Positions 1-4,686 of a stretch of 64,000 nucleotides of DNA are shown here, piece by piece. Every line of letters begins with the position of its first letter. The stretch's first letter is position 1. The position numbers and the translations under genes are program-made. The notes below the pieces were generated by a model. It saw only the letters and a list, made by a program, of their open reading frames with translations. It was not told the DNA's origin and did not search any database. The stretch is from an uncultured delta proteobacterium (GTDB taxonomy: Bacteria > Desulfobacterota > Binatia > UBA9968), in the NCBI GenBank assembly GCA_963804165.1, contig CAWDPO010000019.1, forward strand, positions 1 through 64,000, in the 5' to 3' direction.

Positions 1-13
1 ACCCTGCATGCGG

Positions 14-53
14 GCTTCGGAGAATCTACCTTCTACGAGGTTGGGTGAATAGG
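14..53 (+). repeat. Intergenic repeat copy 1 (CTTCGGAGAAT...GGGTGAATAG)
   Basis: Same motif recurs at 596-781, 1730-1795, 2283-2324 and 3148-3215 in the same orientation. Confidence 0.8.
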
Positions 54-55
54 GA

Positions 56-100
56 CAAGAAAAAGGGCCGGGGCCTCCTAGAAGAAAGGATCCCGGCCCC
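56..100 (-). terminator. Intrinsic terminator downstream of the SnoaL-like gene
   Basis: Minus strand GGGCCGGG...CCCGGCCC stem followed by TTTTTCTT. Confidence 0.6.
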
Positions 101-111
101 TGCTTAGCCGT

Positions 112-510
112 TTACCCGAGCGACTGTAAGAAGGTGGCCGTGTCCACGTAGTTGCGGTGGTGCACCACCTTTCCATCGCGCAACGTCCACACGTGGGCGT
201 AGGGAGCGTCGATCGTCCTGCCGGTCGCCTTGCCCCTGACTCTGAAGTGGCCCAACACGATCACGCGGTCGCCCGCGTCCAAGAACTCATCTGCCACGGC
301 TTGGAACTCGTCCCAATGCTCCGCCACAGCCCCGAAGACTTCGTTGGCGACAGCTTCGGAGCCATGGTGCGTACCCCGGTCCGGCAGCCCCTCCACATCG
401 GGCTCTTGCCATTCTATTTCTGGGTCCAAGAGGCCCATCACGGCCTCGATGTCGCCCCGGTTGAACGCCTCGTACCCCTGGCGCATGATGTTCACGTTCT
501 CTTCGGACAT
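112..510 (-). CDS. NTF2/SnoaL-like (ketosteroid isomerase-like) protein
   Basis: MSEENV..YEAFNRGD..DAGDRVIVLG..HVWTLRDGKV signature. Confidence 0.9.
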   Translation of the reverse strand: MSEENVNIMRQGYEAFNRGDIEAVMGLLDPEIEWQEPDVEGLPDRGTHHGSEAVANEVFGAVAEHWDEFQAVADEFLDAGDRVIVLGHFRVRGKATGRTIDAPYAHVWTLRDGKVVHHRNYVDTATFLQSLG

Positions 511-595
511 ACCCTCATCTCTTTTTCCGGCCTGCTTGCTCGGCGGGCCACCCTTTCCACCGCAAGCATGATGCCATCGCTACATTAACACGGAC

Positions 596-781
596 GCAAC
601 TTCGGAGAATTCACCAGCGTGTTGAAAAACCCCTTTGCGCTCACTTCGGCCCCCTAAACGGGGGCCGATTACGCTGTCTTGGTAGTGTTTCGGCCTTGTT
701 TTGGGGCTCTTTTGGACCGCCGACCGGGCCAACATCTACTTTTTCAACACGCTGTCCCCTTCCACGCACTCCTGTGAATAG
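596..781 (+). repeat. Intergenic repeat copy 2, interrupted by a MITE
   Basis: GCAACTTCGGAGAATTCAC [insert] TCCCCTTCCACGCACTCCTGTGAATAG. Confidence 0.8.
615..754. mobile_element. 140-bp MITE with perfect 15-bp terminal inverted repeats
   Basis: CAGCGTGTTGAAAAA (615-629) / TTTTTCAACACGCTG (740-754); flanks TCAC/TCCC look like a 4-bp TSD with one mismatch; no internal transposase. Confidence 0.8.
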
Positions 782-1631
782 GATCGGAGTACCTGCTCTG
801 CCTAAAGTGCCGCTGGTTGCATCGCATCCGCGATATCCCCGCTACCGAGATGGAGCGCGTGCAGCACTCCGAGTCGCACTCGCTTACGAGGTGCGGAAGC
901 CGGCGAGCGAGCAGGACCCCGGCGACGCCGCTGACCAGCAACCCCGAGAACCGCCCAGCCGGTATGAACCAGACCCCATGATCCGTCACGAAGTAAAGCG
1001 ACGATAGCAGGCCCGCTGTAGCCGAGACAAGCCCGGCTATCGCTAGCGGCCGGGGCAACTCGCCGGTACGCAGCCCAGCCAGCCCCAGGGCGCCAACCAA
1101 CACCCCGAAGCCGGCGCTGAACCGGACCCCCAGCGGCGAACATCAGCCGGTGCAGGGCGGCGGCGCTAACATCCTGCTCTCCCCGGCTACCAGTGAGCGC
1201 CGCCGCGCACAGCGCCGAAGTCGCCAGCGACGCGGCGGCTAGCACGCCACCACTGACTGCCGTCGCCCGCAGCCCTCGCGACCCCCGTTCCGACTGCTCG
1301 GCCAGCTTCGCCACCGACGCGGTGAACCATGCCAGAGAGGTCGCGGAGACTAACTGGCCAACCACGCTCACCCGAGCCGCGCCGGACTCCCTCTAAAGTA
1401 CCGGCGAACGTCCGCCGGTTGCGCGCCCCGACGGGGATAGGGAGAGTCCGACAGGGCTACAGCTCCGGCTACGCTGGCGATGAAGCTGGCGCCTGCCAAG
1501 GGACCGCTCAGTGCTCCGGGTACGCGCAACGAGGTAGCGACGTCTAACCCGACTTGTACCTTGCGACCGTCCGACGATAGTCCCGCCCTGAGGCGCTCTA
1601 TCAGCTCGTGTGTCGGAAGTGGTTGGTCCAT
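744..1631 (-). CDS. Multi-pass membrane protein, split over three frames (true 3' end uncertain)
   Basis: Hydrophobic segments continue across ORFs 1368-1631, 802-1371 and 744-1103; two frameshifts. Confidence 0.55.
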
Positions 1632-1729
1632 GCTCTATACCTCCGAAGATTGGGGGCCGGGGCTCCCCGCAGGATACCCCAGCCACTGCTTCTCCGCGGC
1701 CCGAAGTGCCCCGGACCTAGAAGATGCCA

Positions 1730-1795
1730 GCGAACTTCGTAGAACTCCGTACAGGCGAAGTTCGCGGATCTTCCTTCCCGACGTTGACTGAATAG
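1730..1795 (+). repeat. Intergenic repeat copy 3 (long form with an extra 25-bp unit)
   Basis: GCGAACTTCG at 1730, GCGAAGTTCG at 1755, ends TGAATAG. Confidence 0.75.
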
Positions 1796-1812
1796 ACGGG
1801 CTTTAAGCGCAG

Positions 1813-2204
1813 TCAGGTACGCGGCTTCTTGGCGATCGAGGGCGTTGCCATCCGGGTCCCTGAAGTAGGCGACCTCGGCTCCCCCCTCGAACCTGGCGAT
1901 GCCCTTCTCGTCCGTGATGATAGGTCCTACGTCGTAGTGCTCGAAGGCTACGCCCTTCGAGGTCAGCTCCTCGACGACCCCCTCAACGTCGTCTACGTAC
2001 CAGCTGGCCAGTGTCGCTATCGACTTGCCTGCGTGCTCCGGCGAGAGGTAGACGTGCAATAGCTCCCCTCCGCGCACCGGTACGCCACGTTGTCGCCCGA
2101 GTCGATGCCCACCGAGAGGCCCAGCTTGCTTTCGTAGAACTCTCTGGCACGGTCCATCTTGAGACCGCCAACCCTGCGACCACCTTGTACTCGCTCAAGC
2201 TCAT
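1813..2204 (-). CDS. VOC/glyoxalase family protein (frameshifted)
   Basis: MSLSEYKV..DRAREFYESKLGL..WYVDDVEGVVEELTSKGVAF..AYFRDPDGN spread over three frames. Confidence 0.8.
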
Positions 2205-2282
2205 GGGAAGACCCCCTCCAACCCAGTGTCCCGACCAACATTCGGCACGCTTAGTATCCTCAGGACGCACGTTTCTGCATCA

Positions 2283-2324
2283 GCGAACTCGGAGACTCCC
2301 CCTTCCACGCACTCCGGTGAATAG
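2283..2324 (+). repeat. Intergenic repeat copy 4
   Basis: GCGAACTCGGAGACTCCCCCTTCCACGCACTCCGGTGAATAG. Confidence 0.8.
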
Positions 2325-2393
2325 AGTGCTCTTGTATGGTTCTTGATAGCATGGCCCTTGCAAGCGGGTGGCCACTAAAAAGGAGGCAAGGGC

Positions 2394-2775
2394 ATGTCCA
2401 GCAGACCACACCCCGGGTCGGAGCGCCCTTTGCACGGCCCGCTGCAGAGGTTCGATCTGGGAGCCGAGGTAGGCCATCTGATGGAGGAGGGAGCTTGGCA
2501 GCGAGGGCAGCGCAACTCCATCACCCTGCGTAAGGGCGAGGGCATGAGCGTGGTGCTCCTGGTCATGAAAGCCGGAGATAGGCTCGGAACACGCCGCACC
2601 GGGCCCCTTGAGCCTGAGCGTCCGGGAGGGGCGCATCCGCTTCATGGTGGCTGAGGAGGTGGAGGAGAAGGTGGCAGAGGCGGGATCTGATACTCTGCTC
2701 ACCTGCGACGCTGGGGTAAGGCACACGGTGGAAGCCTTCAGCGACGCGGTGTGCCTGCTCACCATCGCCGGGTAG
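2394..2775 (+). CDS. Cupin-domain protein (one frameshift near 2590)
   Basis: TLRKGEGMSVVLLVMKAGDRL..H..PGPLSLSVREGRIRF..CDAGVRHTVEAFSDAVCLLTI. Confidence 0.75.
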
Positions 2776-2784
2776 CGAGAAGAG

Positions 2785-2991
2785 CTACCCTTCTAGCAGC
2801 TTCAGCGCCCGCCGAGTGAAGAAGTAGAGCGCGTAGCCGTGGGGGTGCTCCTCGCCGACGTCGAAGGCCGTGTGCTCATCCCCCACCAACGCGCCCTCCT
2901 CAAGGAGGTAGCTCAAGGCGTGGTGGTAACGCTCGGAGCCGACATCGCCTACGTCCAGCCCGGCCTCGTGGGCTGCCCTGGTTGGGTCCAC
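2785..2991 (-). CDS. Hypothetical protein; the frame extends upstream to ~3075
   Basis: Open frame with plausible codon usage; AGGAG upstream near 3083. Confidence 0.5.
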   Translation of the reverse strand: MDPTRAAHEAGLDVGDVGSERYHHALSYLLEEGALVGDEHTAFDVGEEHPHGYALYFFTRRALKLLEG

Positions 2992-3147
2992 CCTGGCTCC
3001 CGCTCGGCCGTGGGCTTGGGTTGCGTTGATGGCCCGAAGCAGCTGCAGCCCGTCGCTCTTTGCCTGCTCATCGATGGTGGTTCTCCTTTAGAGCTCATAC
3101 GAAGCTGCGAACATCTTACGCTACCAAGAGGGGCTCCGGGCAGTGAC

Positions 3148-3215
3148 GCTAACTTTCGAGAACGCCGTCTAGGCGAGGTTCACAGAATTTGCCTTTCACG
3201 CACTCTGGTGAATAA
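3148..3215 (+). repeat. Intergenic repeat copy 5 (long form)
   Basis: GCTAACTTTCGAGAAC at 3148, GCGAGGTTCACAGAAT at 3173, ends CACGCACTCTGGTGAATA. Confidence 0.75.
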
Positions 3216-3230
3216 GGCGCCAACCTCCTA

Positions 3231-3632
3231 CTATGAGGGTGCGTCTTGGGCTTCTCCACCGATCAGGTCGCAGTCATCCAGCCGCAGGCACTCGCAGCGC
3301 AGCCCCTTCTCCAGGAGGACCTTCATGCCCAGGGCCCGCTTCACCAAACCCTCGACCTCAGGGAGCTTCGCTGGGCAAGAACCCGCCAGCGCTCGGAGGG
3401 TGGGGTGCCCTCGGAGAACCCGTCCAAGAGCGTTCCGATCTCGGAGATGGTGAACCCGGCTTGTTGGGCGACCCGAACGACGGCCATGCGGTCGAGCACC
3501 TCGCGCAGCACCTCTTCGTCGTAGCGTCTGCGACCGTTCTCCCGCTGGGAGCAGGCAACAGCCCCACGCCCTCGTAGTAGCGCAGCGCCGATGGCCTGAC
3601 GCCCGCCCTCCGAGCCACCTCTCCGATCTCAT
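3231..3632 (-). CDS. MerR-family (SoxR-like) regulator, frameshifted
   Basis: IGEVARRAGVRPSALRYYE HTH; AQQAGFTISEI; C-terminal CECLRLDDC cysteine cluster. Confidence 0.85.
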   Translation of the reverse strand: MRSERWLGGRASGHRRCATTRAWGCCLLPAGERSQTLRRRGAARGARPHGRRSGRPTSRVHHLRDRNALGRVLRGHPTLRALAGSCPAKLPEVEGLVKRALGMKVLLEKGLRCECLRLDDCDLIGGEAQDAPS

Positions 3633-3654
3633 GCTATCCACCGCGGCTTCCTCC

Positions 3655-3685
3655 TTGACTTAAAGCGTGCTTTAACAGGTATAGT
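3655..3685 (+). promoter_or_regulatory. MerR-type promoter/operator
   Basis: TTGACT-19 bp-TATAGT with the dyad TTAAAGC-gt-GCTTTAA in the spacer, between merR and the divergent gene. Confidence 0.85.
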
Positions 3686-3723
3686 CGAGGCCGCCATGCA
3701 CGAACCGTGAGCGAGGAGACCCT

Positions 3724-4065
3724 ATGAACGGTGAAGCAGCACACGAGAGGATCGAGGTTCCCCTCGCCTGTAGGTGGTCGGCTCTCAGCACCGTGCAGCA
3801 GGAGCGCCAGCGAGCCTTGTACCGACAACTGCGTGCGGACGTGGAAGAGGTAGTGGAGTTGGAAGACGGCTACGCCTTCAGGCACTCCCCCGACAGAGTG
3901 GTGCTGCTGGCCGTAGCGGAGTTCGTCTCCAACGAGCGCCTGTGCTGCCCCTTCTTCGAGTTCGGGATCACCGTCGAGCGCGACGGCGGGCCGGTGTGGT
4001 TACGCATGAGGGGCGAGGGCGAGGCCAAGCGTCTCCTGGAGGCCGAGGCGGGCATCGGCGCCTGA
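3724..4065 (+). CDS. Conserved hypothetical protein (ERxCCPFF motif), likely MerR target
   Basis: GAGGAG RBS; LAC..ELEDGYAF..ERLCCPFFEF. Confidence 0.75.
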   Translation: MNGEAAHERIEVPLACRWSALSTVQQERQRALYRQLRADVEEVVELEDGYAFRHSPDRVVLLAVAEFVSNERLCCPFFEFGITVERDGGPVWLRMRGEGEAKRLLEAEAGIGA

Positions 4066-4102
4066 AGATCCGGCTACCCCGCATCGGGCTGGTACCAAGT
4101 AG

Positions 4103-4625
4103 TTACATACGTGCTAGCCGCTCCAGCCGTTGGCAAACAAGGTAGGGTCGACCTCGGAAGGTCCGGTAACTTGAGTTGCTTGATCAATGCGATGTCGTAC
4201 GACTTCTCGTAGATGATGCTGTTCACGTCGGCTATTGTGATGCGCTCGGGGTGGGCTCGTATGAGATCGAAGCCGTCGCCCGCAGCCACCAACCCCTCTG
4301 ACAACACGCGCATATAAAAGCCCGTGTAGCCGACGTTCGCCATCAGCTTGGGCAGCATCGTCGAACCATTCTTTCCCGCCACCTTGGCGCACGGCATGCG
4401 CGGCTGGCTGACCTGCACCCTCGCCTCCCCGATCCGGAACACATCGCCCACGCACACCTCGGTTTCTATAGCCCCCGAGACGGTGAGGTTCTCGCTGAAG
4501 GCGCCGGGCTGAAGGTCGCGTGATACCTTTCTACTCCAGTATGGGTAATGGTCGAATGGGTAGACGCACACCGCCTTCTCAAGCCCCCGTGGTTGACCTG
4601 ATCGGCCTGCAGGTCCCCGTCGACA
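4103..4625 (-). CDS. MOSC-domain (YiiM-like) protein, 5'-truncated at the sequence junction and frameshifted
   Basis: DGDLQAD..HGG..KAVCVYPFDHYPYW..GAFSENLT..QVSQPRMPC..TGFYMRVLSEG. Confidence 0.85.
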
Positions 4626-4686
4626 CGCCTTGTCTTCGGTTCTTCAATCGAAAATCGGCAATCTAAAATCTAAAATTAGTTTTCAG

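Follow-up and report, generated by a model that had tools for sequence, protein, structure and literature searches.

The window analysed here is a 64,000-nt stretch (positions 1 to 64,000, forward strand) of contig CAWDPO010000019.1 in assembly GCA_963804165.1, assigned to an uncultured delta proteobacterium (genome G000 below). Near its start stand five copies (c1 to c5) of a short intergenic repeat, which a sequence-only reading had taken as possible recombination or insertion sites of an undescribed gene-capture system. We hold with slightly better than even confidence that the copies represent a bipartite junction site separating self-contained gene modules, on which a recombinase would act in trans, and that the window carries a Rubrobacterales array fragment, likely misassembled. 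Comparison of arrays showed modules that had evidently been inserted, lost and moved between arrays by recombination within the site, and what emerges is apparently a real, undescribed integron-like cassette system with a partly resolved mechanism. One part of the gene-capture claim stood, namely that the repeats mark the joints of shuffled modules; the evidence extends to shuffling and one precise gain or loss.

In the arrangement that we propose, the site separates gene modules in arrays in one clade of soil Rubrobacterales. Read along its gene, each module would comprise Box B, an upstream region of ~60-200 nt, one or more genes, often a terminator-like hairpin, and Box A; at the boundary between two modules, the Box A that closes one and the Box B that opens the other would together form the ~45-nt repeat. 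A putative sequence-specific recombinase, not encoded beside the arrays, would act in trans on the double-stranded sites. Integrons are the textbook route by which bacteria stockpile and reshuffle single genes, but surveys have turned up practically none in Actinomycetota. There is a little less than an even chance that the arrays constitute a separate gene-capture platform of Actinomycetota, with promoter- and terminator-bearing modules, a bipartite double-stranded site and a putative trans-acting recombinase; if true, this platform would fill the integron niche in a phylum without integrons and spread modules among soil Rubrobacterales. Actinobacteria are described as lacking complete integrons in passages of two IntegronFinder papers (PMC4889954, PMC9024848), and no published description of such arrays in Rubrobacter was found in the literature searched, supplementary files being outside the reach of that search. 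The hosts are desiccation- and radiation-tolerant soil bacteria. With a sequence-defined site in hundreds of copies, a clade showing presence and absence, and one natural module gain or loss, the analogous system and its enzyme become testable questions, and the system could become a source of new site-specific recombination tools.

The bipartite site and its arrays in Rubrobacterales

The conserved site spans ~45 nt and is bipartite: Box B (AACTTCGGAGAAT type) comes first, and Box A (CTTCCACGCACTCCGGTGAATAG type) follows after a centre that varies between 4 and 6 nt. Among 695 distinct copies drawn from many species, more than 20 positions were conserved above 85%. The 23-nt Box A of c4 (2302-2324) served as the search pattern in the scans of the G127 and G000 orders. 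A Box A pattern written in International Union of Pure and Applied Chemistry (IUPAC) codes matched more than 114 stretches in the genome_contigs collection; among the 80 matches listed, 59 were titled Rubrobacter, Rubrobacteraceae or Rubrobacterales, 15 came from other Actinomycetota and 6 from short contigs binned to other phyla. The pattern also occurred in more than 120 soil-type metagenome contigs. At up to three mismatches, at least one match was found in 56 of the 104 genomes of the order of the Rubrobacterales genome G127 (a tally that takes in four unpublished positive genomes), with a maximum of 135 per genome, and the reversed pattern used as a control gave 0 matches in all 104. The only two Box A matches among 122 other genomes of the order of G000 were dismissed as chance, lying in an aldo/keto-reductase-like coding region, and a distant-mode search of plasmid and phage collections returned no match.

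An iterated profile recovered 612 copies in 1.25 Mb of loci, 574 of them intergenic. Neighbours within 5 kb were co-oriented in 329 of 363 pairs (binomial p 9e-62), at a median spacing of 971 nt (interquartile range 644-1554), which is the clustered, co-oriented and cassette-sized layout that the sequence-only reading had envisaged for the repeat. Arrays of 14-16 copies were present, several per genome (e.g., G127:C7:594616-612409), among about a dozen arrays per genome. The proteins encoded in arrays were short (median 157 aa vs 191 aa outside) and the cargo was mixed, including SnoaL, cupin, SDR, hydrolase, USP, receiver-domain, RibD_C and CAAX protease genes as well as insertion sequence (IS) transposases. 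These transposase genes inside arrays belong to the IS110 and IS4/5 families (L263:3761-4744, corresponding to G124:C19; L261:16020-16904; others). IS110-type elements target repetitive extragenic palindromic (REP) and attC sites elsewhere, and they may also target the junction repeat.

This distribution was weighed against an ordinary dispersed repeat of the REP or miniature inverted-repeat transposable element (MITE) type, with accumulation in accessory islands and shuffling by general homologous recombination. Such a repeat would suit the scatter of copies over many contigs, with both strands represented across the genome (in G127, 29 forward and 28 reverse), as well as the 6 of 57 strict G127 copies that had no other copy within 10 kb. 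However, 51 of those 57 were clustered, against ~22% expected at random placement, and the co-orientation of neighbouring pairs, the degree of conservation across many species and the absence of either a palindrome or bounding inverted ends all tell against it. REP sequences and bacterial interspersed mosaic elements (BIMEs) are short imperfect palindromes dispersed genome-wide, with a cognate IS200-like gene for a REP-associated tyrosine transposase (RAYT), and MITEs have terminal inverted repeats and a target-site duplication. Like REP/BIME and mycobacterial interspersed repetitive units (MIRU), the Rubrobacterales repeat is short, numerous, intergenic, lineage-specific and biased in orientation towards gene ends; unlike REP/BIME, it is non-palindromic, clustered in co-oriented arrays and delimits moving modules. 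Inverted ends and target-site duplication are both absent from the 45-nt repeat and both present in the 140-nt element inserted into c2. Together with the join of the precise indel described below, these features make a REP- or MITE-type repeat a rather unlikely explanation.

The relation of the site to genes was assessed with a home-made codon-bias caller, the calls of which are rough. On the Box A side, the 3' end of the neighbouring gene was turned towards the site in 301 of 475 cases (median gap 70 nt), and the gene started at the site in 174; on the Box B side, it pointed away from the site in 219 of 486, indicating no fixed relation of the site to a promoter. This argues against a protein-binding regulatory element (operator or insulator) of a large accessory regulon, for which the shuffling would be incidental, and so do the functionally unrelated cargo and the module limits, which match the site to within a few bases. 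A regulatory element would explain why the site sits where one gene has its terminator-like end and the region upstream of another begins, as well as the GAA/TTC half-site-like words and locally covarying pair (profile columns 8/13) in Box B, and the receiver-domain proteins, which outnumber every other family within and near the arrays examined (7 members in 5 regions). On this evidence, we regard it as improbable. The 8/13 pair (e.g., window 600 and 605) was the strongest covariation detected, a complementary C..G / G..C switch (304 C-G, 157 G-C, 109 other) whose members flank TTCs and are too close for a stem.

Module movement and breakpoints

Homologous modules were compared at an identity of at least 80% in 15 families, after duplicate loci of one record and L049 pairs had been dropped. 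Both flanks were unrelated in 17 of the 23 pairs and the sole assessable flank in 5, and 1 pair was unassessable; a related flank was thus found in 0 of the 22 pairs with an assessable flank. Random orientation and conserved neighbours, by which the sequence-only reading would have recognized an ordinary repeat, were accordingly not observed, as 329 of 363 neighbour pairs were co-oriented and no assessable flank was conserved. In the C13 array of G127, two adjacent units had twins of 98% and 97% identity in the C10 and C7 arrays.

Contigs C1 and C2 of G127 share ~8 kb at 95-98% identity, and one has exactly one 0.96-kb module more, with a site at either end. The extra module has a 225-aa gene, and there are two sites in C1 and one in C2. 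The join falls within the 6-nt GAGAAY at the Box B end, although the two Box A copies, 10-40 nt away, agree at 22 of 25 bases. A second difference between the two contigs, of 2.6 kb, is an ordinary deletion with no repeats at its bounds. Comparison of array copies thus revealed a precise module gain or loss with its breakpoint inside the repeat, the kind of event that the sequence-only reading had proposed to look for. Breakpoints spread over ~25 nt of the repeat, as seen here, would fit shuffling of a REP- or MITE-type repeat by general homologous recombination, but the join of the precise indel lies in a 6-nt microhomology beside the variable centre and not in the long Box A identity.

The limits of moving modules were also seen in G126:C20, where a 1.86-kb module occurs in two places at 99% identity and the homology begins at the centre beside Box B and stops at the outer Box A arm. 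Averages over 26 pairs showed Box B to be co-inherited with the unit on one side (identity 0.76 vs background 0.63); the right arm of Box A went with the opposite unit (0.84 vs background 0.66), and the site centre stayed at background identity. The breakpoints thus have two locations, at the border between Box B and the centre and in the spacer of Box A, and the module boundary is not at the GTT end of the repeat. With the boundary inside the site, each gene takes along the Box B in front of it and the Box A behind it.

Known systems and the search for an enzyme

Functionally, the system resembles an integron or pdif modules, yet it fails the defining tests of both. It shares with integrons and with clusters of attC sites lacking integron-integrases (CALIN) the co-oriented arrays, the one- to two-gene modules of unrelated accessory function with one repeat per joint, and the recurrence of modules in different arrays, where they are gained or lost singly; as in CALIN, most arrays have no adjacent recombinase. 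The attC site is an imperfect palindrome (R''-L''...L'-R') of 57-141 nt that forms a single-stranded hairpin, and in integrons the whole site travels with the upstream gene, with the crossover at G/TT of R'. In contrast, the Rubrobacterales site does not form a folded imperfect palindrome, and two neighbouring modules each contribute part of it, the joins lying in the Box A spacer or after GAGAAY; the modules resemble complete transcription units, arrays number about a dozen per genome, and no IntI was found in five genomes.

That the repeats are true attC sites of unusual sequence, and the arrays CALIN, is scarcely credible. Layout and cargo are typical of cassette arrays and an AAC...GTT pair is present in the medium-form copy c3, but the site is about 45 nt long, and module limits fall within it rather than at a GTT end. 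The short copies c1 and c4 fold no better than shuffles (z 0.19 to 0.31 on the minus strand, -0.08 to -0.51 on the plus strand), and folding was limited to the medium copy c3 and the MITE-bearing c2, owing to their extra parts. Mutual information over the 695 distinct copies revealed no long-range complementary covariation that would reflect Box A/Box B pairing. The integron integrase model (TIGR02249) reached its cut-off in 0 of five repeat-rich genomes (G123-G127; best 52.9 vs 265 bits). Four tyrosine recombinases of G127 scored 36-75 bits. The folding, covariation, IntI and boundary tests already contradict the attC explanation, and the earlier statement that the repeat is not attC is borne out. 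An Rfam 15 scan of window 1-4600 on both strands gave 0 matches at E ≤1.

In Acinetobacter plasmids, dif modules are bounded by pdif sites, 28-bp XerC/XerD sites of 11-6-11 layout in alternating orientation, on which the host XerC/XerD acts in trans. The small modules and the short, double-stranded, recombinase-type sites found in many contexts are common to both systems, but the Rubrobacterales sites are direct, ~45 nt long and composed of two unlike boxes, and the site consensus contains no 11-6-11 dif-like core, the lineage's own dif site not having been compared. The XerC or XerD cut-offs were reached by no G127 protein. A passage of one preprint states that Xer was not found in Rubrobacteria (10.1101/542381).

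One tyrosine integrase family was present in 8 of 13 array regions, as genes or C-terminal fragments and never inside modules. The repeat might accordingly be an attachment (att) site, and the arrays scars of repeated tandem integration by tRNA-island tyrosine integrases. Consistent with this, 6 of the 9 PF00589 matches in G127 lie within 10 kb of a copy, several integrases abut tRNA genes, a Box A-only half site abuts a truncated integrase at G127:C5, and Box A resembles the integrase FHDLRH codons at 13 of 15 bases. However, the repeat is the same next to each of five different tRNAs and does not derive from a tRNA, the integrases have no consistent position or strand relative to the arrays, the family occurs in 99 of 104 genomes irrespective of the repeat, three full arrays have no integrase nearby, and the FHDLRH resemblance amounts to 2-7 profile bits. 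We consider such scars even less probable than a regulatory element. In tRNA-island accretion of the tycheposon type there is a similar setting, with arrays in flexible regions and several of them beside a tRNA gene and an integrase or its remnant; the Rubrobacterales repeat differs in being identical beside different tRNAs and no tRNA fragment, its modules lack integrases, and many arrays lie far from any tRNA.

The island integrase was rejected as the array enzyme, since its layout is inconsistent, most copies are fragments and the family is phyletically universal. No recombinase tied to the arrays was found, RAYT (PF01797), serine and IS110-type enzymes not having been searched genome-wide, and this lack of a dedicated enzyme would also suit a REP- or MITE-type repeat. 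As to the resemblance between Box A (TTCCACGCACTCCGG) and the FHDLRH codons (TTCCACGACCTCCGG; e.g., L263:9716-9740 and L249:6366-6392), Box B also resembles the integrase codons just upstream of FHDLRH, and 6 of 11 integrase FHDLRH sites gave weak co-linear profile matches. The resemblance could be chance or a trace of origin. At G127:C5 (L261:19658-19690), the array ends in the half site, which abuts an integrase truncated at ~residue 225 and followed by a tRNA-Ile gene, and the array appears to have displaced the 5' part of the integrase gene.

Several points weigh against a dedicated trans-acting recombinase working on a defined junction site. The orientation of the site relative to genes is a bias only (301/475, with a crude gene caller). 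The integrases of array regions are of the ordinary tRNA-adjacent island type and mostly C-terminal fragments, their occurrence in 99 of 104 genomes extends to repeat-free ones (unpublished genomes are included in this tally), and no recombinase was found in the flanks of three complete arrays. The precise single-module gain or loss was found once only, and the C1 and C2 copies of G127 may be strain variants binned into one metagenome-assembled genome (MAG). Breakpoints lack a single position, which a simple one-core site would not predict; moreover, the centre is of variable length and accommodates an insertion of 140-160 nt. Neither a circular intermediate nor a junction read was seen.

The window array and its origin

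In the window, alignment and profile placed all five copies on the + strand, as originally described (Table 1), and four of them lie just downstream of a minus-strand gene, at gaps of ~59, 21, a few and 16 nt. Three forms occur: the short form of ~45 nt (c1, c4), the medium form with a second Box B ~25 nt upstream of a full site (c3, c5), and c2, which is split. The long copy previously read at 596-781 is real, but it is a normal copy split by a 140-nt MITE-like element. The core 19-mer at up to three mismatches matched 3 times in the window vs 0.01 expected, a count reached in 0 of 100 shuffles. With nhmmer, all 46 contigs of G000, the window's source genome (7.5 Mb), yielded the five copies at E ≤7e-4 and no sixth, the next match having an E of 0.9. 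The full site of c3 (1753-1796) scored 14.2 bits, and its two Box B units are able to pair as a hairpin (z -2.3 and -2.8). A degenerate sixth copy at 2766-2800, between convergent genes, was rejected, as the profile gives no match there.

Window 1-4623 is, judging from its similarities, Rubrobacterales-like DNA, and the repeat belongs to a lineage other than that of the host genome. The GC content is 60-66% up to ~4500 and 52-58% after it. Against 40 relatives of G000, window 1-3300 gave nothing but short chance matches, and from ~4640 on the genes are common to all 30 G000 relatives searched (unpublished G005 included). In the Rubrobacterales genomes G123-G127, matches at 66-94% identity cover pieces of window 1-4626 and do not extend past it. 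The high-GC actinobacterial host suggested earlier for the whole window thus applies to 1-4623 only, and the host genome is not an actinobacterium.

A public-run contig of 1643 nt tracks window 3628-4623 and then continues into unlike sequence, and a contig from a second public study likewise leaves the window sequence at 4623. No contig bridging 4623-4640 was present among those listed in four runs, where the host-type part past 4736 was almost uncovered; at most 0.36 of sampled words were present in any public run. Frames are broken in at least 4 of the 8 genes of 1-4623 (MerR, VOC-like, cupin-like, membrane), the long open reading frames (ORFs) just past 4623 look intact, and contigs of three public runs have an extra C after 4583. 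The dense broken frames and the extra C are consistent with low-coverage sequencing error in the foreign segment. We think it fairly likely that the join at 4623/4624 is an assembly chimera; a recent transfer is possible, with a chance of about one in three. The window copy would then be a 4.6-kb array fragment from a Rubrobacterales organism, most likely misassembled onto the contig end of an unrelated MAG, with horizontal transfer the less likely route. In practical terms, the case cautions that a conspicuous feature at the end of a contig may come from an organism other than the rest of the MAG. Sixteen nt from the foreign/host join lies an AT-rich host-lineage repeat of 35-40 nt (AATCGAAAATCGGCAATCTAAAATC type; 4640-4678), which has 88-97% identical copies on many contigs of G000 and same-genus relatives and is also found in many contigs of public soil runs.

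Table 1. Features of the window from its first position to the join with host-type DNA; bit scores of c1-c5 are from the profile built on 612 copies.
Feature	Position	Strand	Evidence
c1, short form: Box B, centre, Box A (variant CTTCTACGAGGTTGGGTGAATAG)	8-54	+	profile 40.3 bits; alignment
Terminator-like GC-rich hairpin and T-run after SnoaL gene	61-105	-	reading of sequence by eye
SnoaL_2-domain module gene, intact	112-510	-	PF12680, E 9.3e-19
c2, Box B half	596-614	+	profile positions 6-23 at 598-615; alignment
MITE-like hairpin element inside c2 centre	615-754	.	perfect 15-nt inverted ends 615-629, 740-754
c2, Box A half	755-783	+	profile positions 19-47, 25.0 bits
Membrane-protein-like module gene, frame broken	802-1631	-	ORFs 802-1371 and 1368-1631; no Pfam family
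c3, medium form	1730-1797	+	extra Box B 1730-1747, full site 1753-1797
VOC/glyoxalase-like module gene, frame broken	1800-2204	-	two sub-threshold Glyoxalase fragments, E 0.02-0.04
c4, short form, nearest to consensus of all copies	2283-2328	+	41.7 bits
Possible cupin-like gene, opposite strand, frame broken	2394-2775	+	ORFs; no Pfam match
109-aa-family module gene, no Pfam family, in-frame TAA at codon 9	2785-3114	-	
c5, medium form, last copy of the array	3147-3218	+	extra Box B 3147-3164; full site 3171-3218, 43.8 bits
MerR-family regulator outside the array, split over frames	3231-3641	-	PF00376 E 3e-9, PF09278 E 2.2e-8
MOSC-domain gene, last Rubrobacterales-like gene	4074-4571	-	PF03473 E 1.3e-27
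Join to host-type DNA	4624-4678	.	GC step; 4640-4678 is a short dispersed host-lineage repeat

Among the cargo named in the sequence-only reading, the SnoaL gene (SnoaL_2) and the MerR gene were recovered, the latter split over frames; the cupin gene found no Pfam support, and the VOC gene came down to two Glyoxalase fragments below threshold. The remark that no recombinase is visible agrees with our search of window 1-4600, where no recombinase gene was found. Module genes and their neighbours had DNA matches elsewhere: the SnoaL_2 gene at 81% in locus L083, with different neighbours there; the membrane-protein-like gene at 75% to G127:C7:194212-194833; the VOC/glyoxalase-like gene at 81% to G125:C3:167748-168152; the possible cupin-like gene at 70% in G125-G127; the MerR gene at 73% to G127:C2:244150-244564; and the MOSC gene at 73% in G124, G126 and G127, reaching window 4626. 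A consensus terminator scan gave 0 terminator-like sites, the loop of the hairpin after the SnoaL gene exceeding the limit of the scan.

The MITE-like element of c2 is 140 nt long, has a hairpin fold (z -2.98) and is unique in G000. Fourteen further copies of 140-160 nt were found in Rubrobacterales loci (L085:5929-6068; L278-L289), with 15-nt inverted ends (CAGCsTGTTGAAAAA) that show a compensatory G/C change between them and, in most aligned copies, flanking duplications of ~4 bp. The element lies exactly in the centre of the junction repeat in 11 of 15 aligned copies, indicating that something targets that spot. No full-length parent IS with the same inverted ends was found in the loci examined.

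The 109-aa family is very strongly conserved and comprised 679 protein clusters at E ≤0.001, of which the best 120 listed were 78-91% identical to the query. Among 104 Rubrobacterales genomes, 23 contain it, with 1-4 copies each, and 21 of these 23 are repeat-positive. As a factor of the arrays it was rejected, because it is missing from many repeat-rich genomes, which makes it cargo and not machinery. In the window gene, the TAA replaces the invariant Gln9 of the family, and several genomic copies also have one in-frame TAA.

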